Assembly: GCA_902826935.1 (NCBI GenBank)
Contig: CADEGR010000005.1
Location: 1,256-65,255 of the forward strand
DNA: 64,000 nt
Direction: 5' to 3'
From: an uncultured Alphaproteobacteria bacterium
GTDB taxonomy: Bacteria; Pseudomonadota; Alphaproteobacteria; Geminicoccales; Geminicoccaceae
How positions within the stretch are numbered: position 1 is the stretch's first letter; each line of letters begins with the position of its first letter. The translations under genes and the position numbers were made by a program. Below the pieces are notes generated by a model that was not told the origin of the DNA, did not search any database, and saw only the letters and a list, made by a program, of their open reading frames with translations. Positions 15,987 through 56,400 of the stretch are shown here, piece by piece.

Positions 15987-18356
<2,370 letters not shown>

Positions 18357-18370
18357 GGGAGGCAACCCAA

Positions 18371-19165
18371 ATGTACGCATTCGAATTCCACCGGCCGAGC
18401 TCCGTGGCGGACGCCATCGCTGCCCTCAAGGCGGCAAGCGACGGCAAGCTGATGGCCGGCGGCCAGACCTTGATCCCGACCCTGAAGCAGCGCCTGGCGC
18501 AGCCCTCGGACGTGATCGACCTGGGCGGCATCAAGGAGCTGCATGGCATCCGCCAGGACGGCAACAGCCTGGTGATCGGGGCGATGGCGAAGCATGGCGA
18601 GGTCGCCGGCTCCGACCTGGTCAAGTCGGTCATTCCGGGTCTGCATGAGCTGGCCGGGCTGATCGGCGATCCGCAGGTGCGCAATCGCGGCACGATCGGC
18701 GGCTCGCTCGCCAACAGCGATCCGGCGGCTGACTATCCGGCGGCGGTCCTGGCGCTCAACGCCACGATCAAGACCGACCGGCGCAGCATCGCGGCTGATG
18801 ACTACTTCACCGGTCTATTCCAGACCGCCCTGGCCGACGACGAGCTGATCACCGCGATCAGCTTTCCCCGGCCCGAGGCCTGCGGCTACGCCAAGTTCCG
18901 CAATCCCGCCAGCCGCTATGCCATCGTCGGCGTGATGGTGGCGCGGACCGGCGGCGGCGTTCGGGTGGCGGTCACCGGGGCTGGGCCGTGTGCCTTCCGC
19001 TTGCCTGATTTCGAGCGCGCGCTGGCCGGCAGCTTCTCGGCCGATGCGCTGGCGGGGCTGAGTGTCAGCCCGTCTGGCCTGAATAGCGACATGCACGCCA
19101 GCGCCGAATATCGGGCCCATCTGGTTCGGGTCATGGCGCAGCGCGCGGTCAAGGCGGTCCGCTGA
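18371..19165 (+). CDS. coxM: FAD-binding medium subunit (CoxM-type)
   Basis: MYAFEFHRPSSVADAIAAL...LMAGGQTLIPTLKQRL...RNRGTIGGSLANSDPAAD. The true start is ATG 18371, inside ORF 18209-19165. Confidence 0.9.
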   Translation: MYAFEFHRPSSVADAIAALKAASDGKLMAGGQTLIPTLKQRLAQPSDVIDLGGIKELHGIRQDGNSLVIGAMAKHGEVAGSDLVKSVIPGLHELAGLIGDPQVRNRGTIGGSLANSDPAADYPAAVLALNATIKTDRRSIAADDYFTGLFQTALADDELITAISFPRPEACGYAKFRNPASRYAIVGVMVARTGGGVRVAVTGAGPCAFRLPDFERALAGSFSADALAGLSVSPSGLNSDMHASAEYRAHLVRVMAQRAVKAVR

Positions 19166-19202
19166 GCGGCCAGCACCATCCGCGCGCCGCCGACGTTCTG
19201 CC

Positions 19203-19233
19203 AAGGGGAGCCTTCGGGCTCCCCTTTCGCTTT
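19203..19233 (+). terminator. Rho-independent terminator after coxM
   Basis: AAGGGGAGCC-TTCG-GGCTCCCCTT perfect 10-bp stem followed by TCGCTTTCG. Confidence 0.6.
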
Positions 19234-19250
19234 CGCTGAGGCGCCCGCCC

Positions 19251-20210
19251 ATGGCTGTCATCCTCGAGGGCGTGGTGCCGCTGTTCGCGGTAATCCTGCT
19301 GGGCTATGTCGCGGGCCGGCTGCGGCTGTTCGACGAGGCCGGGGTCGCGACCCTGGTCGGCTTCGTGTTCAACCTCGCCATGCCGCCGCTCCTGTTCCGG
19401 CTGATGGCGACGAGCCAGCTCGCTGAGGTGGCCGACTGGCGTCTCCTGGTGGCCTATTTCCTGGCCCAGCTGCCGGTCTTCCTGGTCAGCGCCGGGCTCG
19501 GGCTGTGGTGGTTCCGCCAGGATGCAGCCGCCGCGGCGATCCAGGGCTTCGGCTCGATCTTCTCCAACAGCGTGGTGCTGGGTCTGCCGCTGGCGCTCTC
19601 GATCTATGGCCAGCAGGGCGCTCTGCCGGCGCTCATGATCATCACGCTGGACGTGATCCTGTTCGGCCTGCTGACCGTCCTCCTGGAGCTGGCGCGCCAT
19701 CGCGGCGGCGCGCCGGGCGGTCGCCTGGCGCTCGCGACGCTCGTCTCGATGCTGCGCAATCCAATTTTCATGGCGACCCTGGGCGGGCTGCTCTATGGCC
19801 TGGCCGGCTTCGGCCTGGCGCCAGTGGTGGACCGCAGCCTCGGCTTTGTCGGCCAGGCGGGGCCGCCCGCCGCCCTGTTCGCGCTCGGCGCCACGCTCAG
19901 CCTGCGGCGCTTGGCCGGCAGCCTCGGCGCCGCCCTCAGCATGGTCGGCTTCAAGCTCCTGATCCATCCGGCGCTGACCTGGCTGGTGGTCCGGCACGGC
20001 TTCGGCCTGGGCGTGCAATGGGCCAATGTCGCCTGCCTGCTCGCGGCCTGCCCGGTCGGCGCCAATACCTATGTCTTCGCGCGCCAGTACGAGGCCGGCG
20101 TCGAGACCAGCTCCAGCGCCATTTTGATCTCCACCGCGCTCGCCATGCTGTCCTTGACCGGGCTGATTCTGCTGTTGCCGGCCTGGCCTGGCACGCCGGT
20201 CGTTCAGTAG
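19251..20210 (+). CDS. AEC (auxin efflux carrier) family transporter
   Basis: MAVILEGVVPLFAVILLGYVAGRLRLFDEAG..., ~10 TM segments, typical AEC N-terminus. Confidence 0.85.
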   Translation: MAVILEGVVPLFAVILLGYVAGRLRLFDEAGVATLVGFVFNLAMPPLLFRLMATSQLAEVADWRLLVAYFLAQLPVFLVSAGLGLWWFRQDAAAAAIQGFGSIFSNSVVLGLPLALSIYGQQGALPALMIITLDVILFGLLTVLLELARHRGGAPGGRLALATLVSMLRNPIFMATLGGLLYGLAGFGLAPVVDRSLGFVGQAGPPAALFALGATLSLRRLAGSLGAALSMVGFKLLIHPALTWLVVRHGFGLGVQWANVACLLAACPVGANTYVFARQYEAGVETSSSAILISTALAMLSLTGLILLLPAWPGTPVVQ

Positions 20211-20683
20211 TTCAGCATCGGCGCTGTTCTATTAAGAGGCGACCGCTGACCGGTCCCGATCGCTCTATGGGATGAAAAACGACAAAGAAAACAACGGGTT
20301 GCAAGGAAGCCGTAAGGCTCCTAATGTGCCACCATACGAAGGAGGAGCGTCGACGCGTGGGGGCGTTGGCGACAACGAACTGGTAGAGGGGAAACGAATG
20401 CTTAGCTCCGTCCGGAGCGAGGCTTGGCCATTGGTCATTGCCGCGCGATCTCTTGTCGAATCCTGCGCTGATTCCGCTGGCGCGCCTTGACGGATCTGGC
20501 CCTGGCAGGTACCCCTGCCGGCTTCTGTGTTTGATAACACGTTGGTCGTCCCGTCCGCCGATAGCGAGCGAGACGTCCGCTTGAGACCGCAGCCGCTGCT
20601 GCCAGGTTGCCGAGCGGACACTTGCCTTGAATAGCCACTTATGGATCGGCATTCGGCCGATCTGCCGAATTGGGGAGAGCCCG

Positions 20684-22417
20684 ATGAGGTCTGTCCTGTC
20701 GTCAATGACAGTCATTGGTGCAGTGATTTTCGGAGCCGCCGGTGCCCAGGCGGCGCCTGCCGCGAAGGATCCGCACAACGACCTCCTGTCGCAGGAGGCC
20801 TATCCCAGAGCGGCCCAGTGCGGCGTCTGCCACCAGCAGATCTATCGGGAATGGGCCTCGTCGAATCACGCCTATTCGTCGATCTCGCCGATGTTCCATA
20901 AGTTCGAGCAGAAGATTAACGACCTGTCGGGCGGCACGGTCGGCGCGTTTTGCGTCCGCTGCCATCAGCAGATCGGCACCCAGCTCGGCGAGCAGCGCGA
21001 GTCCGCGCTCTGGGAGCGCAGCGGCATCGCCCGCGAAGGCGTCACCTGCATCACCTGCCACCGGGTCGCCGAGGAATATGGCAAGGTCAACGGCAACCGC
21101 GTGGTCGAGCCGGGCGGCATCCATGCGCCGGTCAAGGGCTCGACCAAGGACAGCTCGTTCGCGGCCGTGATCAGCAATCCCGACTACTCGGTCGCGACCA
21201 AGGATGGCGAGACCGGCGATCCGATCCACAACGCGGTCGAATCCTTCGAGCAGATCACCAAGTCCGAATTCTGCGTGTCCTGCCACCAGGTCGCGGTCCA
21301 TCCCAACATCAAGCTCGAGGTGGTCTGGGATCAGTATCGCAACTCGCCGGCGGCGGCGCAGGGCGTGACCTGCCAGGAATGCCACATGGGCAAGAACCCT
21401 GGCCGACCTGACGGCTACGAGAAGACGCCGGTCGCGGTGGTCCAGGGCAAGCCGGTCGGCAATGAGCGCGACCATCACAACCACGCGTTCTTCGGTCCTG
21501 GCTATCCGATCACCCATCCGGGCGTGTTCCCGCACAATCCCGACGCCGAGCGCTGGACCATCGAAGACTGGCTGGCGTTCGACTATCGGGCCGGCTGGGG
21601 CACCGAAGACTTCGAGATCGCGATGGTGGACGGCGAGAAGGACGTGAAGTTCCCGGAGGTCTGGGCCGATCCGGTCGATCGCGAGGAAGCCCGCCTGATC
21701 ATCGACGACAACCTCGCCTTGCTCGAGGAAAAGCGCGAGCTGCGCGAGGCGACCATGAACAACGGCTCGAAGATCGAGGGGCCGTATTTCGACGATGAGC
21801 CGAAGGTCGGCGAGTCCTTCAGCTTCTACTATGACGTGACCAACACCAATAGCGGCCACAATCTGCCGTCCGGCTCGCTCGGCGCCCAGCCGGAGATCTG
21901 GCTGAACGTCGCGCTGACCGATCCCAACGGCAAGACCGTCTGGGAGTCCGGCTACGTCGACAGCCATGGCGACATGGCCGATCTGCATTCGCTGGATGTC
22001 GCCGAAGGCAAGATCCCGATCGACAACCAGCTGTGGAATCTCCAGACCAAGTTCCTGACGACCAACGTCAAGGGCACCGATCGCGAGATGCCGCTGCCGG
22101 TCAATTTCGACATCGACCCGATCCCGTTCATCCGGCCGGGCGCGGTGCCGACCACGGTGCTCAACCATCCGCCCTTCATCCGGATGGAAGGCCGCAGCCT
22201 GCCGCCGCTCTCGACCCGCAAGGCCGAGTACTCCGTGCCCGCCAGCGCGCTCACGGTGCCCGGCACCTACCGTCTCTCGGTGCGCCTGCGCTCTCGCGCC
22301 GAGCCCATCTACTTCATGCGCTTCGTCGAGGCGACCAAGGAGATGGAGCAGGCGATGAACGAGTGGATGATCGACATCCATCCGCAGGCGGTTGAGATCG
22401 ATGTCCTGGCTGACTGA
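20684..22417 (+). CDS. secreted pentahaem c-type cytochrome (5 x CXXCH) with a large haem-free C-terminal domain
   Basis: Signal peptide MRSVLSSMTVIGAVIFGAAGAQA after GGGGAG. CXXCH motifs: CGVCH 20819, CVRCH 20951, CITCH 21047, CVSCH 21272, CQECH 21371. Confidence 0.85.
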   Translation: MRSVLSSMTVIGAVIFGAAGAQAAPAAKDPHNDLLSQEAYPRAAQCGVCHQQIYREWASSNHAYSSISPMFHKFEQKINDLSGGTVGAFCVRCHQQIGTQLGEQRESALWERSGIAREGVTCITCHRVAEEYGKVNGNRVVEPGGIHAPVKGSTKDSSFAAVISNPDYSVATKDGETGDPIHNAVESFEQITKSEFCVSCHQVAVHPNIKLEVVWDQYRNSPAAAQGVTCQECHMGKNPGRPDGYEKTPVAVVQGKPVGNERDHHNHAFFGPGYPITHPGVFPHNPDAERWTIEDWLAFDYRAGWGTEDFEIAMVDGEKDVKFPEVWADPVDREEARLIIDDNLALLEEKRELREATMNNGSKIEGPYFDDEPKVGESFSFYYDVTNTNSGHNLPSGSLGAQPEIWLNVALTDPNGKTVWESGYVDSHGDMADLHSLDVAEGKIPIDNQLWNLQTKFLTTNVKGTDREMPLPVNFDIDPIPFIRPGAVPTTVLNHPPFIRMEGRSLPPLSTRKAEYSVPASALTVPGTYRLSVRLRSRAEPIYFMRFVEATKEMEQAMNEWMIDIHPQAVEIDVLAD

Positions 22418-24323
22418 GACCAGACGGCGCCTGCTGCTCGGGGCGGCCTGCCTCGGCTCGGTAATGGGTGGCCAGGCCTGGGCTGGTGACGGCACCGTCG
22501 TCACCATGCCCCTGCCGGCCAGGCCAGCGGTGACGCCGCTGGCGCCCGGGCTTGCTCCGGCGGCCACGGTTGCGGCCGTCGCGCCGGCTCAGCCTTCGGC
22601 GCCGGCGGCGACCCTGGCGCCGGTTCAGCCAGGCCTGACGCAGCAGGCGGCGTTCGATCTCGCGGGCGCAGCCAAGCCGGTTGCCAGCCGGGCGGCGCGG
22701 CGGGCGTTCGAGCAGCGCCGTCTGGCGCAGGCGGCGGCTGCCAAGGCGGCGAAGCGCCCGGTGCGTCAGCCGATGGTTCTGGCCGGCCCGCCGACCGCGC
22801 TCGAGAAGGCCCTGCTGCAGCGGGGCATGGCGACCGCGCCGACGGATCGCGCCAAGCCGGCGCCCTGGCCGGTGATCCTTCTGGCCGGCTACGACGATCA
22901 GCCGCTCAAGGCCAGCAAGGGTGCCCGCAAGGTCGAGTTCGACGAGAAAGCGTTCAAGTCCGATCCGACCTATCAGGACAAGCCTTACGATCCGAGCGCC
23001 CAGCAGGCGATCTATGGCGGCAAGCAGGCGGTCAACAGCCAGCGGCCGCTGGTCGAGCTCGGCACGCCGCTCTACGACGTCGGCCCGCTCGGCCAGGGCG
23101 TCAATGTGCTCGGCCAGAAGAACCTGCTGTTCGGCTATCTCTATGTCTTCGGCGATTGGCGGACCGCGGTCGCCTACAACGACAACAAGGGCGAGGACCT
23201 CGCTCAGGTCGCGACCCGGGTCAATCTCGACGTCGACCTGGGCCTGACCGCGACCGAGCGGATCCACGCCCTGTTCCAGCCGCTGCAGGACAACAACAAG
23301 TTCACCCGTTGCGAATTCTCCGGCAGCGCCAGCACTGACGAATGCGAGTTCGAATCCGACCTCGATCCGCAGACCTTGTTCTTCGAGGGCGATGCCGGCG
23401 CGATCACGGCCGGTCTCACCGGCAGCTACGTCAATTGGGATCTGCCGTTCACCGGCGGCCTGATCCCGCTGCTGTTCCAGAACGGCATCTGGGTCGAGGA
23501 CGCATTCTGGGGCGGTGCCGTGTCGCTGCCCTCGATGAACAGCAAGTCGCTCGACATCTCGAATGCCGACATCACCTTCTTTGCCGGCTTCGACGACGTC
23601 GAAGCGAACGGCATCGTCGACGGTGGCGGCGTGATCGCCGACGAGGATGTCAACGTCTACGGCTTCGCCACGTTCCTCGAGACCTTGGGCGGCTACATCG
23701 AAGCTGGCTACGGCTATGCCGATGATCAGGGCCAGGACGGCGTGATCGGCGAGCAGGACTACCACTCGGCGACCCTCGCGTTCACCAAGCGCTATGGCAA
23801 CTGGCTGTCCAACAGCATCCGGGTCGTTGGCAGCTTCGGCCAGGACAAGGACGTCGGCGACAATCAGAACGGTGTGATGTTCCTGGTCGAGAACTCGCTG
23901 GTCTCGAGCAAGCCTTATACCGTTCTGCCTTACGCCAACTTCTTCCTCGGCATCGAGCGGCCGGTGCCGCTGGCGCGCAACAACGGTGTTCTGAAGAACA
24001 CCGGCATCAACTTCGAAAGCGATGCGCTGACCGGCTATCCGTTCCTGAACGACACCGGCCAGAACGCCTATGGCGGCGCCATCGGCATCCAGTACCTGTT
24101 CGATCTCGATCAGCAGCTGGTGCTGGAGGTCGCGGCCGAGCGCAACCTGTCCGACGTCAATGACGGCTTCGATGATATCGTCGGCAATCAGTATGCCGTG
24201 GGTGCCCGCTATCAGATCCCGATCTCGAAGGCCTGGCTGGTGCGCACCGACGCCACCTATCAGATCATCGAGGATGGCGACAACAGCGCCGGCGCCCGCG
24301 TCGAGCTGCGCTGGAAGTTCTAG
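22401..24323 (+). CDS. outer-membrane beta-barrel protein (Ala/Pro-rich N-terminal linker + ~440-aa barrel-like region, C-terminal Phe)
   Basis: The ATG at 22401 overlaps the cytochrome stop by 17 nt. Signal peptide ...GAACLGSVMGGQAWA. Alternating hydrophobic strands (YAVGARYQIPISKAWLVRTDATYQII). The protein ends ARVELRWKF. The family was not identified. Confidence 0.65.
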   Translation: MSWLTETRRRLLLGAACLGSVMGGQAWAGDGTVVTMPLPARPAVTPLAPGLAPAATVAAVAPAQPSAPAATLAPVQPGLTQQAAFDLAGAAKPVASRAARRAFEQRRLAQAAAAKAAKRPVRQPMVLAGPPTALEKALLQRGMATAPTDRAKPAPWPVILLAGYDDQPLKASKGARKVEFDEKAFKSDPTYQDKPYDPSAQQAIYGGKQAVNSQRPLVELGTPLYDVGPLGQGVNVLGQKNLLFGYLYVFGDWRTAVAYNDNKGEDLAQVATRVNLDVDLGLTATERIHALFQPLQDNNKFTRCEFSGSASTDECEFESDLDPQTLFFEGDAGAITAGLTGSYVNWDLPFTGGLIPLLFQNGIWVEDAFWGGAVSLPSMNSKSLDISNADITFFAGFDDVEANGIVDGGGVIADEDVNVYGFATFLETLGGYIEAGYGYADDQGQDGVIGEQDYHSATLAFTKRYGNWLSNSIRVVGSFGQDKDVGDNQNGVMFLVENSLVSSKPYTVLPYANFFLGIERPVPLARNNGVLKNTGINFESDALTGYPFLNDTGQNAYGGAIGIQYLFDLDQQLVLEVAAERNLSDVNDGFDDIVGNQYAVGARYQIPISKAWLVRTDATYQIIEDGDNSAGARVELRWKF

Positions 24324-24420
24324 CGGCCAGAGCATCGGCGGCGGTTCGCGCGATTTTCGCTGACCGCCCGCCGGGCTTGGGTTTAGACTCCCGTCGAAGC
24401 GACCGAAGGCGACGGCGGGC

Positions 24421-25989
24421 ATGGCAGAGCGTCTCAAATATTGGGGCTGGGGCAGGGTAGGCGACGGGCTGAGCAGCGCCGAAGCCGACCGCTTGCTCCG
24501 CTGGTATGCCAGCCGGTTCGATCTGGCTGGTCGCAGCCCGCGGGTGCCGCCCGGGCCCGACGCCATCGCGCTGCCGCCGTCGCGGCTGCAGCCGCCGGCC
24601 GCCCTCGCTGGTCTGGTCACCAGCGAGCCCTATGAGCGCCTGTTGCACACCTATGGCAAGTCCTATCCCGATGCCGTGCGCGCCTTCGCCGGCGCCTTCG
24701 CCAGCGCGCCCGATCTGGTGGCGCATCCGACCGGCGAGGCCGAGATCCAGGCCCTGCTCGACTGGGCGGCTGGCGCTGGCGTTGCGGTCATCCCGTTCGG
24801 CTGCGGCTCGAGCGTGGTCGGTGGCATCGAGCCGCGGGTGCCCGACCGCTTCGCCGGCACGCTCAGCCTCGACCTTGATGGTCTGAACCGGCTGCTCGAG
24901 GTCGATCCGGTCAGCCGTGCCGCCCGCTGCCAGGCGGGGATGCGCGGGCCGGTGCTGGAGGCAGCGCTGCGGCCGCACGGCCTGACTTTGCGCCATTTTC
25001 CCCAGAGCTTCGAGTTCTCGACCGTCGGCGGCTGGATCGCGACCCGCTCCGGCGGCCATTTCGCGACGCTCTTCACCCATATCGACGACTTCGTCGAAAG
25101 CCTGCGCACGGTCACCCCGGCGGGTGTCATGGCGAGCCGACGTCTGCCGGGCTCCGGTGCTGGCCCCAGCCCGGATCGTCTGATGATCGGCTCGGAAGGC
25201 GCCTTGGGCGTGATCACCGAGGCCTGGCTCCGCCTGCAGGCCCGGCCACGCCATAAGGCCCAGGCGGCCATCGGCTTTGCCGATTTCGGCCGGGCCGCAG
25301 ACGCCATCCGCGCGATCGCCCAGGCCGGCCTGTATCCGAGCAACCTGCGCCTGATCGATGCCGAGGAGGCGGCGCTGAACGGTGCCGGCGACGGTGCCGA
25401 AGCGCTCATGGTCCTGGCCTTCGAATCGGCCGACCATGCGCTCGATGCCTGGCAGGCGCGCGCCTTGACCTTGGTTCAGGACCATGGCGGCCGGGTCCAT
25501 CCGGACTTGCAGGCGGCCGAGGCCTGGCGCACCGCCTTCATCCGCATGCCCTACCAGCGCGAGCTGGTGGTGCCGCTGGGCCTGATCGTCGACACCTTCG
25601 AGACCGCCGTGACCTGGGATCGCTTCGCCGCCCTCCATGAGGGCGTCAAGGCGGCCACCGCCGCCGCGATCAGGGACGTGACCGGTGCTCAGGGGCTGGT
25701 CACCTGCCGCTTCACCCATGTCTACCCGGATGGCCCGGCACCTTACTTCACCTTCCATGCGCAGGGTCAGCCAGGCGGTCTGCTCGAGCAGTGGCAGGCG
25801 ATCAAGGCTGCCGCCGCCGATGCGGTGATCGCGTTGGGGGGCACGATCACCCACCACCATGCCGTCGGCCGCGACCACATGCCCTGGTATCGCCAGCAGC
25901 GGCCGGAGCTGTTCGGTGCCGCCCTGGCCGCGGCCAAGCACAGCCTCGATCCGGCGGGCATCATGAATCCCGGCGTGCTGGTGCCATGA
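24421..25989 (+). CDS. FAD-linked oxidase, alkyl-DHAP-synthase (AGPS)-like
   Basis: N-terminal LKYWGWG motif. FAD-binding PCMH-type region (VIPFGCGSSVVGG). The C-terminus reads ...THHHAVGRDH...LDPAGIMNPG. Confidence 0.82.
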   Translation: MAERLKYWGWGRVGDGLSSAEADRLLRWYASRFDLAGRSPRVPPGPDAIALPPSRLQPPAALAGLVTSEPYERLLHTYGKSYPDAVRAFAGAFASAPDLVAHPTGEAEIQALLDWAAGAGVAVIPFGCGSSVVGGIEPRVPDRFAGTLSLDLDGLNRLLEVDPVSRAARCQAGMRGPVLEAALRPHGLTLRHFPQSFEFSTVGGWIATRSGGHFATLFTHIDDFVESLRTVTPAGVMASRRLPGSGAGPSPDRLMIGSEGALGVITEAWLRLQARPRHKAQAAIGFADFGRAADAIRAIAQAGLYPSNLRLIDAEEAALNGAGDGAEALMVLAFESADHALDAWQARALTLVQDHGGRVHPDLQAAEAWRTAFIRMPYQRELVVPLGLIVDTFETAVTWDRFAALHEGVKAATAAAIRDVTGAQGLVTCRFTHVYPDGPAPYFTFHAQGQPGGLLEQWQAIKAAAADAVIALGGTITHHHAVGRDHMPWYRQQRPELFGAALAAAKHSLDPAGIMNPGVLVP

Positions 25990-26540
25990 CCGGCCGCGAT
26001 CTGCAGCATCAGCGCGCGGAGGCATCGGCCGAGCCGGCCGAGCTCGCCTTGGTCCGTGCCGCTGCTCCGGCCGACGTGCCGGCCTTGGCCGAAGTCCATG
26101 TCGCCAGCTGGCGCTCGACCTATCAGGGCTTGCTTCCCAGCACCTATCTCGAGGCCTCGACGATTCCTCGGCGTTGCTCGTTCTGGCAGCAGATGCTGGT
26201 CCGGCCCGACCGCATCAGCCTGGTCGCGGAAGACCGGCAGGCGGTGGTCGGCTTGGCGCTGGCGGGGCCGACCATCACGCCCGAGCTGGGCTTCGAAGGC
26301 GAGCTGTTCGCGCTCTATCTGCTGCCCGGCCACCAGCGTCGGGGGTTCGGCCGCGCCCTGCTCGAGGCCAGCCGGGCCGCGCTCTATGCCCAAGGCTGCC
26401 GACGTATGATGCTTTGGGTTCTGGCCGGCAACTCAGCGCGCCATTTCTATCGGCGCATGGGCGGCCGGCTGATCGCCGAGCGGACCGAGGATTTCGCCGG
26501 CCAGCCGCTGGCCGAGCTGGCCTTCGGCTGGGACGGCTGA
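25986..26540 (+). CDS. GNAT family N-acetyltransferase
   Basis: ATGA start/stop overlap with the upstream gene. The acetyl-CoA motif region is LYLLPGHQRRGFGRALLEASRA... Confidence 0.8.
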   Translation: MTGRDLQHQRAEASAEPAELALVRAAAPADVPALAEVHVASWRSTYQGLLPSTYLEASTIPRRCSFWQQMLVRPDRISLVAEDRQAVVGLALAGPTITPELGFEGELFALYLLPGHQRRGFGRALLEASRAALYAQGCRRMMLWVLAGNSARHFYRRMGGRLIAERTEDFAGQPLAELAFGWDG

Positions 26541-26651
26541 GCAGCCGGCTGACTGTCGAAATCACGCCAGCCGGCGTCGGCGCCAGGCTGGCTGCGGTCT
26601 CGGCCGGGTGCTAAGACCGCGCGATCGGTGGCGCATCAGCTGGAGGCGAGC

Positions 26652-28187
26652 ATGACGGTGGCAGCGCGCGAGGGCAGGCGGGGCGGCCGTTCCGCGAGGC
26701 GAGAAGCGCGGACCGCGATCGAGCTGAAGTTCCTGCCGGTGCTCAAGCGGACCGTGCCGACCTACCAGATCCTGGACGAGGCGCAGCTGGAGCGCCTGCA
26801 TCAGGCATCCTTAAGCATCCTCGAAGAGATCGGCATCGAGTTTCGCGATCAGGAGGCGGTCCAGCTCTGGCAGGCGGCCGGTGCTGCGGTCGAGCGCTTC
26901 CGTGTCCGCATCCCGCGCGATCTGCTGATGGCGCTGGTCGCCAAGGCGCCGGGCCGCTTCACCGTGCATGGCCGCAACCCCGCCCATAGCAGCGAGATCG
27001 GCGGCGATCAGGTGGCGTTCGGACCGACCTATGGCTCGCCCTTCGTCTATGGCTGGGACAATCAGCGCCGCTACGGCACGCTTGAGGATCTCCACAATTT
27101 CCACAAGCTCGCCTATCTGACGCCGGTCCTGCACAACACCGGCTCGGTCACCTGCGAGCCGGTCGACGTCGCGGTGCCCAAGCGCCATCTGCACATCACC
27201 TACAGCGCCATCAAGCACTCCGACAAGCCGTTCATGGGTCCGGTCACGGCGCCCGAACGGGCGGCCGACGCCGTGCGCATGGCCGAGATCGTGTTCGGTC
27301 GCGAGTTCGTCGACCAGAACACCGTGATGATCTCCTTGATGAACTGCAACTCGCCGCTGGTCTGGGACGAGACCATGCTGGGCGCGCTCAAGATCTATGC
27401 CCGGGCCAACCAGGCCTCGATCGTGGCGCCCTTCGCCTTGGCCGGCGCCAACACGCCGGCGTCCGCCATGGGTGCGGTCGCCCAGATCAACGCCGAAGGG
27501 CTCGCCGGCATCGCGTTCAGCCAGCTCTGCCGGGCCGGGGCACCCGTGATCTACGGCCACTTCCTGGCGACCGTGTCGATGAAGTCCGGGGCCCCCATGG
27601 CCGGCACGCCCGAGATCGCGTTCATGAACCTCGCGATCGGTCAGCTTGCCCGCAAGTACGGTCTGCCGCTGCGCTCGTCCGGCATGATTGCCGGCTCCAA
27701 GCTGGTCGATGCCCAGGCCGCCTACGAATCGATCCAGACCATGTATCCGGCCTTCCTGTCGGGCGCCAACTACGTCCTCCATAGCTGTGGCTGGGACGAG
27801 GCGGGCCTCGCCGCCAGCTTCGCCAAGTTCATGCTGGATGCCGAGCAGATCGCGATGTTCTACCGCTTCGGCCAGGGCCCCGACTTCAGCGACTTCGAGG
27901 ACGCCATGACCGCGATCCGCGAGGTCGGGCCGGGCGGCCATTATCTGGGCACCGAGCACACCCAGAGCCATTTCCAGACCGCGTTCTTCATGCCGGAGCT
28001 GCTCGACAACAACAGCTTCGAGCAATGGCTGGGCGATGGCGCCAAGGACGCCAATGCCCGCGCCCTGGAGGCGGCCCGCCGGCTGCTCGACAGTTACCAG
28101 GCGCCGCCGCTCGATCCGGCGATCGACGAGGCGCTCCTGGCCTTCATCCGCGAGCGCGAGGCGGTTCTGCCCGACAGCATGGATTGA
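26652..28187 (+). CDS. trimethylamine methyltransferase (MttB) superfamily protein, non-pyrrolysine type
   Basis: The full-length match to the MttB pattern (LHQASLSILEEIGIEF..., ..NCNSPLVWDETML..., ..GGHYLGTEHT..) was recognised by eye. There is no in-frame TAG. ATG 26652 follows GGAGG (GTG 26628 is an alternative start). Confidence 0.88.
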   Translation: MTVAAREGRRGGRSARREARTAIELKFLPVLKRTVPTYQILDEAQLERLHQASLSILEEIGIEFRDQEAVQLWQAAGAAVERFRVRIPRDLLMALVAKAPGRFTVHGRNPAHSSEIGGDQVAFGPTYGSPFVYGWDNQRRYGTLEDLHNFHKLAYLTPVLHNTGSVTCEPVDVAVPKRHLHITYSAIKHSDKPFMGPVTAPERAADAVRMAEIVFGREFVDQNTVMISLMNCNSPLVWDETMLGALKIYARANQASIVAPFALAGANTPASAMGAVAQINAEGLAGIAFSQLCRAGAPVIYGHFLATVSMKSGAPMAGTPEIAFMNLAIGQLARKYGLPLRSSGMIAGSKLVDAQAAYESIQTMYPAFLSGANYVLHSCGWDEAGLAASFAKFMLDAEQIAMFYRFGQGPDFSDFEDAMTAIREVGPGGHYLGTEHTQSHFQTAFFMPELLDNNSFEQWLGDGAKDANARALEAARRLLDSYQAPPLDPAIDEALLAFIREREAVLPDSMD

Positions 28188-28246
28188 GCGCAAGGCCGGA
28201 TCGTGGTCTGCTGCTGCGGCCCGATCGGAAGCCCGGAGAGCCCGCC

Positions 28247-29197
28247 ATGACTGCCCGCGACCACGTGCCCGCCAGCCCGACCAGCCCGGAGCCGATCCGC
28301 GGCGTCTGGTGTCCGGCGCTGACCCCTGTGGATGACGAACTGCGGCCCGATCCGGTCCGCTTCGTCGCCCATGCCAGCTGGGTCATGGCCGAAGGTTGCC
28401 ACGGCATCGTGGTGTTCGGCACCACCGGCGAGGCCAGCTCGTTCTCGGTCGAGGAGCGGATCGCCCTTCTGGATGAGGCGCTCGCCGCCGGCCTGCCGCC
28501 CGAGCGCATGCTGATCGGCACCGGCTGCTGCGCCCTGACCGACAGTGTCCGGCTGACCCGCCATGCCCTGGATCAGGGTGTTGCCGGCGTCTTGATGCTG
28601 CCGCCTTTTTACTTCAAGGGCGCAAGTGATGAGGCTCTATTCGCCAGCTACGATCTGATCATCCAGCGCCAGACGCGCAGTGACTTCGGGCTCTATCTCT
28701 ACCATTTCCCGAGGCTGACCGGCGTGCCGATCACGTCCGGCCTGATCGAGCGGGTCCAGGCCGCTTATCCGACGATCCTGAAGGGCGTCAAGGACAGCTC
28801 GGGCGACTGGACCAACACTGCCACGCTTCTCCAGCGCTGTCCGGACCTCGCCGTCTTCCCCGGCGCCGAGAGCCTGCTGCTGCCGGGGTTGGAGCAGGGC
28901 GGGGCCGGCTGCATCAGCGCGTCCTGCAACGTCAACGCCAGGGCCATTCGGCGGCTCTATGACGGTTTTGCCGCCGGTGCCGGCGATCTGGCGACGCAGC
29001 AGCAAGCCATCGCGGCGAGGCGCGAGCTGTTGCAGCTGGCACCCCAGATCGCGGTCATGAAGCAGATGATCGCCGATCAGCGGGGCGATCCGGGCTGGCG
29101 CCGGGTCCGGCCGCCGCTCCTGCCGCTGGCGGCCGCCGATGCTGCCAAGCTGGAGCACGGCCTCGCGGCGATGGATTTTCGCCTGACGCTTGCCTGA
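28247..29197 (+). CDS. dihydrodipicolinate synthase (DapA/NAL) family class I aldolase
   Basis: GVWCPALTP....GCHGIVVFGTTGEASSFSVEER...LMLPPFYFK...GVKDSSGD (Schiff-base Lys context). Confidence 0.85.
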   Translation: MTARDHVPASPTSPEPIRGVWCPALTPVDDELRPDPVRFVAHASWVMAEGCHGIVVFGTTGEASSFSVEERIALLDEALAAGLPPERMLIGTGCCALTDSVRLTRHALDQGVAGVLMLPPFYFKGASDEALFASYDLIIQRQTRSDFGLYLYHFPRLTGVPITSGLIERVQAAYPTILKGVKDSSGDWTNTATLLQRCPDLAVFPGAESLLLPGLEQGGAGCISASCNVNARAIRRLYDGFAAGAGDLATQQQAIAARRELLQLAPQIAVMKQMIADQRGDPGWRRVRPPLLPLAAADAAKLEHGLAAMDFRLTLA

Positions 29198-53446: not shown

Positions 53447-56400
53447 ATGCGGTCGAGCAGCATTGACATAAGCCTAGCCATGGCACCGACCTCAGCCCCC
53501 TGCGGAGCCGCAGGCCGCCGGCGACTGCCGGCCAGTGGCAGGCCCCTATGGGGGCGCTGGGCGGCGGCGCTGAGCCTGGTCTTGGCACTTCTAATGGCGC
53601 GCCCTGGCCATGCCGAGACCCGGGTCGCGCTGATCATCGGCAATGCCGGCTACGACAATGTGCTCGACCTCGACAATCCCTCGACCGATGCCGACGCGAT
53701 CAGCGACAAGCTGCGCGGCCTCGGCTTCGATGTGCTGACCACGATCGACGCCAAGAAGGCCGACATGATCGCGACCATCCGCGAGTTCGGCCAACGGGTC
53801 GAGCAAGCGGATGTTGGCCTGTTCTACTACGCTGGCCACGCGATCCAATATGGCGGCACCAACTACTTGGTGCCGACCGATGCATTCTTGCGCAACCAGG
53901 GCGACATCGATCTGGAGCTGATCGACGTCAATCTGGTCCTGCGCCAGCTGCAGGATCGCACCAAGACCCGGCTGATCTTCCTGGACTCCTGCCGGGACAA
54001 TCCGTTCGAGGATCTGGCCGCCGATCCGCGCAGCCTGCCCAATCCCGGCCTGGCGCCGGTCGCGGCCAGCCGCGGCACCTTCATCGCCTATGCGACCGAG
54101 CCGAACCACGCCGCCTTCGATGGCATCCAGGACATCCACAGCCCGTTCGCCCGGGCACTCTTGAGCTACATCGACAGCCCGGGCCTTGAGGTCCGCGGCA
54201 TGATGACCAAGGTCCGGGCCGAGGTGGTGCGCGCCACCAACGGTCAGCAGGTGCCGTGGGACCATTCCTCCCTGCTCAGCGACTTCTATTTCCGGCCCTC
54301 GACCGAGAGCGCGGTCGCCAAGGCCGACCAGGAGCTGGAGCAGCTCAACCAGGTGCTGGCGGTGGCCGATCCGGAGGAGCGCCTGAACCAGCTGCGCAGC
54401 TTCAAGGAGGCCCATGCCGGCAGCGCGCTGATGCCGCTGGTCGACAGCGCGCTGCAGTCGAGCGGCCGGCCGACCCTGCAGAACCCGGGCCTGAACCGGC
54501 CGCCGCTGCTGTCCAAGAGCCCGGAGCTGGTGGTCGAAGGCGGCAGCGGCGCCCATGAGCTGGCCATTCCGGCACCGCGCGATCCGGATGGCGACCCGCT
54601 CCAGATCACGGTGGTCGAGCTGCCGAGCAGCGGCACGATCCGCAGCCGCGGACGCCAGGTCAAGGTCGGCGACGCGCTGACCTTGAAGCAGCTGGAGGCG
54701 GCCACCTACCACCTGCCGCCGGACGTGATCGGGTCGGTTGGCCAGTTCACCTTCCAGGTCGCGGACAACCGGGGCGGCTCGGTGGTCGGCGCCTTGCCGA
54801 TCCGAATCCTCAAGGCCAACCAGCTGCCGGTCATGCCGGCACCCGAGGCGCTGGTGGTGACCATTGGCGGCCCGGCGGTCCCGATCGTGCGCGAGCCGCC
54901 GACCGATCCCGATCCGGATGACCGGGTGATCGTGCGGGTCCAAAGCGGGCCGGCCCAGGGCGAGCTCACGCTGGACGGCGTCATTCTGTTCGCCGGCGCC
55001 GCGGTCACCGCCGAGCAGCTGCAGCGGGTCGCCTACCAGCCGCCGGCCGAGTTCGTGGCGGATGCCGGCGCGATCGGCCTGATGGCGGAAGACGGCCGCG
55101 GCGGCGAGACCCAGCGCCGGATCGCGATCACCCTCAACCGGCAGCCGGATTTCGGCCGCAACAGCACGGTCGATCTGGTCGCTGGTCCGGCCGCGCGGCC
55201 GCTCGCGATCGCGCCGCCGGTCGATCCGGATGGCGACGATCTCAAGGTCGTGGTGCGCGGCCTGCCGAGCGAAGGTGGTGCGGTGGTCGTCGGCGAGCGC
55301 AAGCTGGCGCTGGGCGACAGCCTGTCCTCGGCCGATTTCGCGGCGCTCGCCTTCCAGACCGAGGCCGGCTTTTCCGGCTATGCCGGCCGCCTGGCGCTCG
55401 AGGCCGACGACCAGCGTGGCGGCCGCAGCGAAAAGGCGGTCACCTTGCGGATCGCGCAGCCCAACAACCCGCCGATCCTGCCCGACCAGAGCCGGGCCTT
55501 GACCGCCGAGGTCGGCCGCGCCAGCCCGCTCCAGCTAGGCCAGCCATTCGATCCGGACGGCCAGGAGGTCGTGGTCCTGATCGTGCAGACGCCGGCCAAC
55601 GGCCGCATCCTGCTCGACGAGCTGGAGATCACGCCCGGCTCGACCGTGACCCCGGTCGAGCTGACCCAGCTGCGCTTCATGCCGGATGCCGGCAGCGTCG
55701 GCCAGACCAGTGCGCTCCACTATGCGGTCGGCGACGGCCATGGCGGTGCGACCCTCGGCAGCATCGAGATCTCGGTGGTTGCCGCCAACCGGCCGCCAGT
55801 GGTCGCCAATGCCGAGATCTCCACCAGCAGCGACCGGCCGCCCGAGCGCCTGGTCAAGCAAGCGCCGAGTGATCCGGATGGCGATCCCCTTACGATCGAG
55901 GTCGTGAGCCTGCCAGCCAGCGGCCGGAGCCTGCTCGGCGAGCGCCCCTTGAAGGTCGGCGACCAGCTGACGCTCGAGGAGCTGAGCCAGATCGCCTTTG
56001 CCGCCAGCAGCGATTTCGTGGGCTGGGCCGGCAGCTTCACCTATGCCGTGACCGACGGTCGCGATGGTCGTTCGGTCGGCGGCGTCGACATCTTCGTCGA
56101 GCCGCCCAACCGTCCGCCGATCGCGGCCAGCGAGGCGCATCAGGAGGTCTTGAAGGGGCGGCCGGCGACCTTGCTGATGCGGCGGCCCTTCGATCCTGAC
56201 GGCGATGCCTTGAGCGTGCAGGTGACGGCGGTGCCGGCACGCGGCAGCGTCCTGCAAGACGATCGCAAGATCGCGGTCGGCGCCAAGCTCAGCCTCGCCG
56301 AGCTGGCCAATCTGCGCTTCGACCCCGAGGCCGGCGAGCCCGGCATTGCCGGCAGGTTCAGCTATGCCGTGCGCGACGATCGCGGCGGCGAGGCGCAAGG

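Follow-up and report, generated by a model that had tools for sequence, protein, structure and literature searches.

Two overlapping genes at positions 20,684 to 24,323 of a stretch of DNA from an uncultured alphaproteobacterium of the family Geminicoccaceae (contig CADEGR010000005.1; the whole stretch, 64,000 nucleotides (nt) in length, is referred to here as the window) encode an exported pentahaem c-type cytochrome and a predicted outer-membrane beta-barrel. The locus raises a question: does such a pair conduct electrons across the outer membrane, in the manner of MtrAB, or does it connect a periplasmic haem enzyme to a dedicated outer-membrane channel? A first-pass annotation, made from the sequence of the window, had offered these two possibilities and had recognised neither as a described system. 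We find that the pair is real, that it is an orphan, duplicated ptdAB pair of a family already named twice in genomics papers, and that what we can add to those papers is inference and not function.

The pair corresponds to the pentahaem cytochrome and the porin of a putative porin-cytochrome cluster, 'PCC4', that comprises a porin, periplasmic tetrahaem, pentahaem and decahaem cytochromes, and an inner-membrane protein with two HX13H motifs (He et al. 2017, Front Microbiol 8:1584). The same cluster has been named ptdABCDEFG in Alphaproteobacteria of oxygen-deficient zones (bioRxiv 10.1101/2023.11.21.568154), and the pair is ptdAB in that nomenclature; the first-pass view that the system is not a described one therefore falls. 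Both papers are genome-only descriptions that assign no function. PCC4 subgroup I consists of Hyphomicrobium, and subgroup II, which has a pfam13247 Fe-S gene, consists of Zeta-, Gamma- and other Alphaproteobacteria together with Planctomycetes (He et al. 2017); the family analysed here has in common with these Hyphomicrobium, other Alpha- and Gammaproteobacteria, and Planctomycetota. Identity to in-cluster PtdA and PtdB (loci L005, L009, L012-L014, L086, L087 and others) is 60-73% for the window cytochrome and 45-66% for the window barrel. Like PtdA, for which a 'C-terminal beta-sandwich' has been described (bioRxiv 10.1101/2023.11.21.568154), the window cytochrome combines a pentahaem part, with motifs at amino acids (aa) 46-234, with a haem-free C-terminal beta-sandwich, as modelled by AlphaFold2 (AF2); the window barrel differs in bearing an N-terminal Ala/Pro-rich tether of ~130 aa. 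We conclude that the window pair is almost certainly a paralogue of ptdA-ptdB that stands alone, ptdA-ptdB being the unvarying core of a putative envelope-spanning redox cluster, PCC4/ptdABCDEFG.

Relatives of the cytochrome are present in at least 499 genomes in a scan with one genome per species. We assessed pairing and cluster layout on the best 80 loci, searching for the barrel with tblastn; these loci cover Geminicoccaceae, Minwuia, Kordiimonadales, Hyphomicrobium and other Alphaproteobacteria, Gammaproteobacteria, Planctomycetota, Verrucomicrobiota and Acidobacteriota. At all 77 informative loci the cytochrome gene is followed directly, on the same strand, by a barrel gene; at the other three (L021, L058, L065) the contig ends just past the cytochrome gene. 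The gene calls for cytochrome and barrel overlap at six of eight homologous loci. In the window, the ptdA-like gene (ORF1; 20684..22417, + strand; ATG at 20684, TGA at 22415-22417; 577 aa) and the barrel gene (ORF2; 22401..24323, +; ATG at 22401; 640 aa) share 17 nt (22401..22417, +) that contain the end of the first gene and the start of the second, an arrangement consistent with translational coupling and exactly as first annotated. A scan of the window for promoter-like and terminator-like sites found neither between the two genes, in keeping with coupled expression. Adjacency at 77 of 77 loci, together with the joint duplication and co-divergence described below, leads us to conclude that the cytochrome and the barrel form what is evidently an obligate, conserved, co-evolving unit.

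Most loci hold the pair within a larger cluster. At locus L005 the cluster comprises a tetrahaem cytochrome (316 aa), a cNMP-binding/Fer4_11 protein (564 aa), a membrane protein (271 aa) with two HX13H motifs, a 9- or 10-haem cytochrome, the pentahaem cytochrome, the barrel, and a FAD_binding_6/NAD_binding_1/Fer2 protein. The Fer4_11/cNMP protein (PtdE) and the two-HX13H membrane protein (PtdF) were found at L005, L009, L086 and L087. In the Hyphomicrobium arrangement the tetrahaem, membrane-protein and decahaem genes are on the opposite strand and there is no Fe-S gene; other loci have the order D-E-F-G-A-B-C or, in Phycisphaeraceae, A-B-C-D-E-F-G. A reading of the pair as a compact conduit does not fit these genomes, most of which embed it with tetrahaem, decahaem, Fe-S, ferric-reductase-like membrane and FAD/NAD proteins. 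In the 64-kb window itself, tblastn with the components of L004 and L005 found no tetrahaem PtdD and no decahaem PtdG, and no frame other than ORF1 has two or more CXXCH motifs; tblastn with the L004 and L005 proteins likewise found no PtdF ('IMP') or PtdE, and tblastn with the L005 protein found no PtdC. The gene that follows the barrel in the window, in the position of ptdC, encodes a FAD_binding_4/FAD-oxidase_C protein and not a FAD_binding_6/NAD_binding_1/Fer2 protein. Two single observations beside full clusters may be recorded: a VIT1-family (Fe/Mn transporter-like) gene at L005 (1692-2393), and a CHASE2-guanylate cyclase gene at L086 (15578-17578), the latter noteworthy because PtdE has a cyclic-nucleotide-binding domain.

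The closest relatives of the window pair (L006-L008, L010 and L088; 77-81% identity) are bare pairs as well, accompanied by no other ptd/PCC4 component and no multihaem frame. Their surroundings are fixed in six genomes, with CoxG-CoxS-CoxL-CoxM-like genes upstream and an MTTB-family gene downstream; an AEC transporter gene is also upstream in all except L088, and a FAD oxidase gene is downstream in some. In neighbour-joining trees of both proteins the bare pairs form one clade, sister to the in-cluster pairs of Geminicoccales (L009, L023, L086, L087). The congruence of the cytochrome and barrel trees indicates duplication as a unit followed by co-divergence, and we conclude that the two genes have, to judge from these trees, duplicated together and co-diverged in Geminicoccales. 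The co-occurrence check proposed with the first annotation came out in favour of a pair. A single long-read Geminicoccaceae metagenome-assembled genome (MAG), CBDBEN01, contains L009, which is a full cluster, along with L010, which is a bare pair. Assembly GCA_020357715.1 also has both (full cluster L087/L209, bare pair L088); split as it is into tens of thousands of contigs, it may not be a single genome. Pairs that are likewise bare, with less flanking sequence around them, come from Acidobacteriota and Planctomycetota (L035, L041, L048). The locus of the window organism is represented by three near-identical MAG contigs.

The cytochrome consists of three parts. Its N-terminus, MRSVLSSMTVIGAVIFGAAGAQA followed by AP, reads as a Sec signal peptide (aa 1-23; 20684..20752, +) that is cleaved after AQA and has no lipobox Cys. 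The pentahaem domain (aa 43-238; 20810..21397, +) contains CXXCH motifs at nt 20819, 20951, 21047, 21272 and 21371, the positions reported in the first annotation, which correspond to aa 46, 90, 122, 197 and 230. All haem motifs therefore lie within the first 234 aa, and the 10 Cys residues of these motifs are the only ones in the protein. The Cys-to-Cys spacing is 44/32/75/33 aa, in place of the 41/32/76/30 given earlier, and the haem density is one per ~115 aa. The remainder (aa 240-577; 21401..22414, +) is haem-free, as first described, and in the AF2 secondary structure is helical at aa ~286-359 and then a beta-sandwich, with strands at aa 362-575. The AF2 model, computed without haems, is of moderate confidence (predicted local distance difference test, pLDDT, 75). 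A fold search with the whole model gave no match at E <= 1e-3, and the C-terminal part gave weak matches to beta-sandwiches of Ig, CARDB and transglutaminase types. The beta-sandwich bears a loop (aa 384-404; 21833..21895, +) that runs from D-V-T-N-T-N-S through G-H392-N-L-P-S-G-S398 to L-G-A-Q-P-E and has invariant columns in the family alignment; in the haem-free model, pLDDT falls below 50 both here and at the haem-2 motif.

More than 3,148 homologues of the cytochrome, at identities of 55-85%, were found, the best label among them being 'multiheme c-type cytochrome'. For both proteins we used 54-sequence alignments (A2 for the cytochrome, A1 for the barrel). Mean column identity in A2 is 52% across phyla, and the haem-free half is as conserved as the haem domain. 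Outside the CXXCH motifs, eight His residues (31, 62, 72, 182, 267, 278, 392 and 566), together with M235 and K73, are invariant in the family. The window cytochrome, itself one of the sequences in A2, retains every residue that is invariant among the 54, which indicates that the window copy is under purifying selection.

In line with the first-pass annotation, profile hidden Markov model (HMM) searches of Pfam and NCBIfam place the cytochrome in no characterised equivalog family; scores are far below the equivalog cut-offs. Pfam gives generic multihaem matches only (Cytochrome_C554, 35 bits), and the top NCBIfam match is ExtKL (NF040886; 34.2 bits vs. a cut-off of 250). The suggestion of an NrfA-type core holds as a remote likeness, in that both proteins belong to a broad family of multihaem enzymes and have five haems at roughly similar spacing. 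It does not hold as a classification: Pfam Cytochrom_C552 scores 12.8 bits vs. a cut-off of 24.1, and does so over a single stretch of 23 aa; CXXCK is lacking, every one of the five motifs being CXXCH; neither NrfH nor NrfBCD is encoded in the window as a partner; the C-terminal part is built differently; and the demonstrable relatives are other proteins. The first is the pentahaem c552 of Thermochromatium tepidum (PDB 5ze8), the sole solved structure with detectable sequence similarity to the cytochrome. Both haem-motif blocks align (E 6e-7 by phmmer, 1e-8 by profile); c552 has 435 aa vs. 577 aa for the window cytochrome, and no similarity was detected past the haem domain.

The second relative is MccSep (ExtKL, GSU2937-2936) of Geobacter sulfurreducens, a periplasmic pentahaem selenoprotein polysulfide reductase with a 5ze8-like fold, in which haems 1, 3, 4 and 5 are bis-His-ligated and haem 2 is ligated by His122/Cys239 (bioRxiv 10.1101/2025.11.18.688581). 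A porin-like protein, ExtI, is encoded with ExtKL (Jimenez Otero et al. 2018). We obtained ExtKL-type genes from metagenomes by means of a back-translated pattern of the published selenopeptide, which fetched 120 loci (L089-L208); 89 of these encode pentahaem proteins with an in-frame TGA, and L161 matches the published MccSep numbering. An hhalign comparison of A2 with 67 ExtKL-type sequences shows that the haem domains are homologous (probability 98.8%, E 1.4e-16): aa 43-238 of the window family align with residues 55-267 of MccSep, and the five CXXCH motifs correspond one to one. The window family has a 6-aa deletion exactly at ...DNPTQC239, the site of the haem-2 ligand. Both proteins have a C-terminal Ig-like or beta-sandwich domain bearing a TN..GH.[IL]P.G-x loop, and both are encoded with an outer-membrane barrel. 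The loop of the window family, G391-H392-N-L-P-S-G-S398, is in register with G-H319-A-I-P-D-G-U325 of MccSep, with Ser398 at the position of the selenocysteine (Sec), Sec325; the distance from haem 5 to the loop is ~100 residues longer in the window family. We conclude that PtdA is, by these alignments, a member of the c552/MccSep superfamily but not an MccSep, and that what is newly seen here is a haem-domain homology to MccSep/ExtKL without the catalytic Cys and Sec of that enzyme. The correspondence of the invariant loop to the MccSep loop is a lead and not a proof.

The pairing with a barrel appears to be a separate matter. A search for homology between PtdB and the barrels beside ExtKL-type genes gave no match at E < 1, which suggests that the cytochrome-barrel pairing in the two systems is analogous and not inherited. 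As side observations, candidate ExtI-like barrels ending in ...TQLQ[LV][IWV]F lie near some ExtKL-type loci, and the DNA pattern G-H-x-I-P-D-G-TGA-P proved highly specific for ExtKL/MccSep-type genes (89/120), Cys239 and the in-frame TGA being always kept.

The second protein is, as first proposed, confidently predicted to be an outer-membrane beta-barrel. It begins with a signal peptide, read from sequence (aa 1-28, ...GGQAWA followed by GDG; n-region T-R-R-R-L-L-L; 22401..22484, +), and ends in ...ARVELRWKF, with a terminal Phe that is invariant in the 54 sequences of A1; both features had been noted in the first annotation. The region between signal peptide and barrel, described there as an Ala/Pro-rich linker of ~190 aa, is Ala/Pro-rich and of low complexity at aa ~29-160 (22485..22880, +), a lineage-specific and putatively periplasmic tether that is missing from most homologues (~500 aa) and in which no tandem repeat was found; aa 161-242 (22881..23126, +; 82 residues) are instead a conserved non-barrel segment. 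The strand region, put earlier at ~440 aa, was modelled as a barrel, and the barrel proper is shorter (aa 243-640; 23127..24320, +), ending in an invariant E-x-R-x-K-F.

The AF2 model of aa 161-640, computed with the family alignment, has pLDDT 84.3 and a predicted template-modelling score (pTM) of 0.82, with pLDDT mostly 85-96 in the barrel. We count 18 strands, on the basis of 19 long DSSP elements two of which are taken as a single broken strand. The topology, in which short periplasmic turns alternate with longer outer loops and both termini are periplasmic, fits 18 strands. The top Foldseek matches in the PDB are Campylobacter jejuni MOMP (E 8e-11), OprD/Occ channels, AlgE, and Escherichia coli ChiP, all of which are 18-stranded (E 1e-10 to 1e-8; TM 0.55-0.71 on target); MtrB is absent from the top 50. 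Strand number and overall size thus resemble those of OprD/Occ, AlgE, ChiP and MOMP, at sequence identities of 7-14% and with no HMM relationship detected; the window barrel differs from OprD/Occ-type channels in its conserved pre-barrel segment of ~80 aa and its obligate cytochrome partner. We conclude that the barrel is confidently predicted, and newly seen here, to be OprD/AlgE/MOMP-like and not an MtrB-like 26-strand sheath.

Conservation is unevenly distributed in the barrel. Surface loops L2, L4, L5, L6, L8 and L9 are unconserved, loop L3 (Q-N-G-x-W) is nearly invariant, and the long loop L7 (aa 520-555, 36 residues; 23958..24065, +) is 53% conserved and modelled with pLDDT 89-95. Of the conserved residues in the strands, 51 are polar or charged. 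Fifteen residues are invariant in the pre-barrel segment (F25, D28, P29, Y31, Y36, I44, Y45, G46, K48, P56, E59, Y65, G68, G78 and N81 in construct numbering), whose pLDDT is 44-72. From this pattern we infer that the lumen is probably constrained and charged, that L7 may fold into it, making L7 a candidate in-folded constriction or selectivity loop, and that the pre-barrel segment may become ordered only with a bound partner, which makes it a candidate for the element on which the cytochrome docks, or for a plug.

In sequence the barrel family stands by itself. More than 1,557 homologues were found, every one of them annotated 'hypothetical', and in an exhaustive profile search the family filled 327 representative clusters (50% identity) at E <= 1e-30, a number that rose to 834 at E <= 1e-3. 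Searches of Pfam and NCBIfam gave no family above cut-off, DUF6666 alone appearing at E 0.015-0.025, and no sequence relative was found in the PDB. Mean column identity in A1 is 42%.

The region N-terminal to the barrel is variable across the family, ranging from 0 to 800 aa and including Pro/Ser/Thr/Gln-rich tethers (variants P0232, P0206, P0253, P0343 and P0324). In two PtdB homologues an OmpA peptidoglycan-binding domain (aa 40-134) followed by a Pro/Ala-rich linker occupies the place of the Ala/Pro-rich region, and in other lineages this place is taken by a LysM/FimV-like segment or by up to 800 aa of P/S/T-rich sequence. The OmpA-fused relatives indicate that the N-terminus and tether of the barrel protein are periplasmic, and the variants as a group suggest that many PtdB proteins are peptidoglycan-anchored or span the periplasm. 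Long PtdB homologues were considered as possible cytochrome-barrel fusions (Rosetta stone) and set aside, the extensions being low-complexity or peptidoglycan-binding and containing no CXXCH. An apparent length polymorphism of ORF2 in MAG contig CADEGY010000002.1 (L001; 516-aa call) was rejected as a scaffold-gap artefact; a run of N at L001 9783-9990 corresponds to window 22466-22770, inside the Ala/Pro-rich part. The T-E-T-R-R-R-L-L-L at aa 4-10 of ORF2 (window 22410-22430) is twin-arginine-like, which would be odd for an outer-membrane barrel and is probably a coincidence.

What, then, does the pair do? On balance, and by no wide measure, we think it probable that the pair is an outer-membrane-docked terminal redox module in which the barrel serves as an access channel, and not a compact MtrAB-type wire. 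The scheme by which such a module might work, all of its steps taken jointly, has in our estimate something close to an even chance. In this scheme, both proteins would be exported by Sec. The cytochrome would receive five c-haems, because it has five CXXCH motifs, and would stay soluble in the periplasm, because it has no lipobox. The barrel would insert in the outer membrane, its variable Ala/Pro-rich tether remaining periplasmic, and the cytochrome would dock at the periplasmic face of the barrel by way of the pre-barrel segment and the periplasmic turns. Given its 18 predicted strands, a charged lumen that is conserved and a single long loop that is conserved too, the barrel would act not as the sheath of a haem wire but as a channel that gives specific access to a redox substrate outside the cell, small or soluble, or to a metal ion. 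The redox site would lie where the haem domain meets the invariant beta-sandwich loop, as does the active site of MccSep. Electrons would enter or leave through periplasmic multihaem carriers, which in related genomes are the tetrahaem PtdD and the decahaem PtdG of a full cluster located elsewhere, and the orphan pair would be an alternative terminal module on the shared chain.

The scheme has electrons flowing outward, that is, in the reductive direction, rather than inward by Fe(II) oxidation. Ferric-reductase/NOX-type modules move cytoplasmic electrons outward, and outward flow is favoured because the full clusters hold NAD(P)H/FAD/2Fe-2S proteins, 2x[4Fe-4S] proteins and ferric-reductase-like di-haem-b membrane proteins. 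An enzyme-like reading of the cytochrome is suggested by its high conservation, its low haem density, the homology of its haem domain to that of MccSep and the loop in register. Of the two possibilities raised in the first annotation, the second, in which a haem enzyme is connected to an outer-membrane channel of its own, comes nearer to the favoured reading.

Several observations weigh against a terminal redox module of this kind. The docking, the location of L7 in the lumen and the strand count rest on a haem-free monomer model. Alignment by hhalign of the C-terminal domains alone, window family vs. ExtKL-type, gives E 0.0087 and a probability of 4.6%, and searches of the C-terminal part against NCBIfam and Pfam and of the loop segment against the PDB gave no support for MccSep. 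Cys239 and Sec325 are invariant in 67 of 67 ExtKL-type sequences and are both lacking in the window family. The eight invariant non-motif His residues suffice for bis-His ligation of all five haems, so that PtdA could be a pure electron carrier without a catalytic site. The closest NCBI homologues that might have been an in-cluster paralogue from the window's own MAGs (P0004, P0009, P0015, P0016, P0021) all come from other assemblies. The electron direction favoured for PCC4 was Fe(II) oxidation (He et al. 2017), and full-text literature searches under the names PCC4 and ptd returned no experimental follow-up.

A more specific form of the terminal-module reading can be stated; taken as a whole it is a doubtful possibility. 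The pair would be a self-contained outer-membrane redox enzyme of a new type, having an MccSep-related catalytic subunit in which the Cys/Sec chemistry has given way to a different active site, built around the invariant GHNLPSGSLGAQPE loop. This subunit would be clamped beneath an 18-stranded barrel that delivers a specific extracellular substrate. The Geminicoccales orphan would have neofunctionalised to a substrate of its own, its electrons being supplied either by a Ptd chain that it shares or by periplasmic carriers of a general kind. Should the full Ptd chain be driven by NAD(P)H, as PtdC/E/F suggest, the whole would amount to a bacterial electron exporter that is NOX-like and reaches as far as the outer membrane.

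An insulated wire of the MtrAB type, in which the cytochrome threads the barrel and exposes a surface haem for direct exchange with minerals or electrodes, by Fe(II) oxidation or by Fe(III)/Mn(IV) reduction, would be in line with the PCC4 model and with the compact conduit of the first annotation but is, in our judgement, improbable. The resemblance is genuine at the level of gene organisation: the window pair and MtrAB/PioAB/MtoAB each join a periplasmic multihaem cytochrome gene to one for an outer-membrane barrel, in the window family strictly so, the full ptd/PCC4 cluster is envelope-spanning, and a decahaem cytochrome, a tetrahaem cytochrome and an inner-membrane redox protein are present in most clusters, as for a chain of that kind. 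Among the carriers of the cluster, moreover, are Zetaproteobacteria that oxidise Fe(II) and Hyphomicrobium of Fe/Mn filters (He et al. 2017), and the highly conserved lumen of the barrel could be a protein-protein interface. Against this stands the build of the two proteins. MtrB has 26 strands and uses them to sheathe MtrA, which has 10 haems, all bis-His. The window barrel has 18 strands, shows no sequence or fold match to MtrB and no Pfam MtrB_PioB signal, and has in the ordered, conserved L7 a loop of in-folded type that suggests an occupied or constricted lumen. The window cytochrome is a two-domain protein of 577 aa with five haems all in the first 234, neither thin nor haem-dense, and scores 32 bits vs. 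a cut-off of 192 with the DmsE/decahaem model TIGR03508. The gene order in the window is cytochrome, then barrel, with translational overlap, and no extracellular cytochrome partner is present. With 18 strands and an in-folded-type loop, threading of a 577-aa cytochrome through the barrel is unlikely, and the analogy to MtrAB drawn in the first-pass annotation is not supported.

Also improbable, in our view, is that the pair is a pure electron-transfer adaptor: that is, that an all-bis-His PtdA is held by a PtdB anchor and ends the Ptd haem chain beneath the outer membrane, with no transport. The count of invariant His residues and the loss of the catalytic Cys and Sec of MccSep both agree with a carrier, the conserved and poorly modelled pre-barrel segment could be a docking peptide, and the peptidoglycan-binding OmpA or LysM-like modules on many PtdB homologues are typical of structural anchoring. 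An anchor, however, would have no need of strands in which 51 polar or charged residues are conserved, nor of conservation in L7, a passive carrier would not need a haem-free half conserved like the haem domain, and the final reaction partner of the chain would be left unexplained.

Finally, that the cytochrome is an independent soluble periplasmic haem enzyme, NrfA-like or similar, beside a generic porin gene is highly improbable and is largely refuted by co-occurrence and co-duplication: the placement of PtdA in the same cluster of orthologous groups (COG) as NrfA (bioRxiv 10.1101/2023.11.21.568154) and the weak Pfam/NCBIfam matches to NrfA/NrfB/NrfH-type models speak for it, and adjacency in 77/77 loci across phyla, joint duplication with congruent trees, the translational overlap, a barrel family found only in this context and devoid of a general-porin signature, and an NrfA model score far under cut-off speak against it.

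The results bear on a family of some breadth. With at least 499 species-level genomes and 327 barrel clusters, the ptdAB/PCC4 pair is among the most widespread and most conserved functionally blank porin-cytochrome-like modules. Reports place it in bacteria that oxidise Fe(II) or nitrite and in Alphaproteobacteria common in soil and wastewater, and one study found high transcription of it in ocean oxygen-deficient zones. The bare copies indicate that the two genes are an evolutionary, and probably a functional, unit separable from the rest of the chain, and the bare pair offers expression, structural work and biochemistry a target of the smallest size, just two genes. The predicted 18-strand barrel and the homology to MccSep move the question from an MtrAB-like wire to a haem enzyme with a dedicated channel, and the question so reframed alters which substrates and which assays to try.

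The pair is preceded by a 473-nt intergenic leader (20211..20683, +) in which a search of Rfam found no riboswitch or other RNA family. A hairpin followed by a T-run, terminator-like, at 20502-20521 presumably marks the end of the upstream Mem_trans gene. A scan of 20100-24600 found no sigma-70-like promoter site and so did not locate the promoter of the pair. The adjoining genes, Mem_trans/AEC upstream and FAD_binding_4/FAD-oxidase_C downstream, are the unrelated neighbours named in the first annotation. In six frames the 64-kb window contains seven CXXCH motifs, five of them in ORF1; the other two, at 54134(-) and 16473(-), are in frames antisense to larger open reading frames (ORFs), that at 16473(-) lying inside the span of the CoxL-like gene. 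The motif at 54134(-) was considered as a further cytochrome and dismissed as a spurious frame antisense to a 1772-aa gene. That gene (53447-58765, +) has a recurring 'PNRPP ... DPDGD' motif in many segments past its N-terminal region; by eye, its N-terminus (VALIIGNAGY...) is caspase/peptidase-C14-like and its C-terminal region is Sel1/TPR-like and peptidoglycan-binding-like.

Further out, the DNA upstream of the pair (15987-20210) contains a CoxG/CoxS/CoxL/CoxM-like molybdenum hydroxylase operon in addition to the AEC (Mem_trans) transporter gene, and the DNA downstream (24421-29197) contains FAD-oxidase, GNAT, MTTB-family and DHDPS genes. Each of the five diverged Geminicoccaceae-like genomes examined (L006-L008, L010, L088) has CoxL-like, FAD_binding_5 and MTTB-family genes on the flanks of the pair, and most of the five also have the transporter and the FAD oxidase. 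One conceivable functional link of this neighbourhood to the pair is that the molybdenum hydroxylase serves as its electron source.

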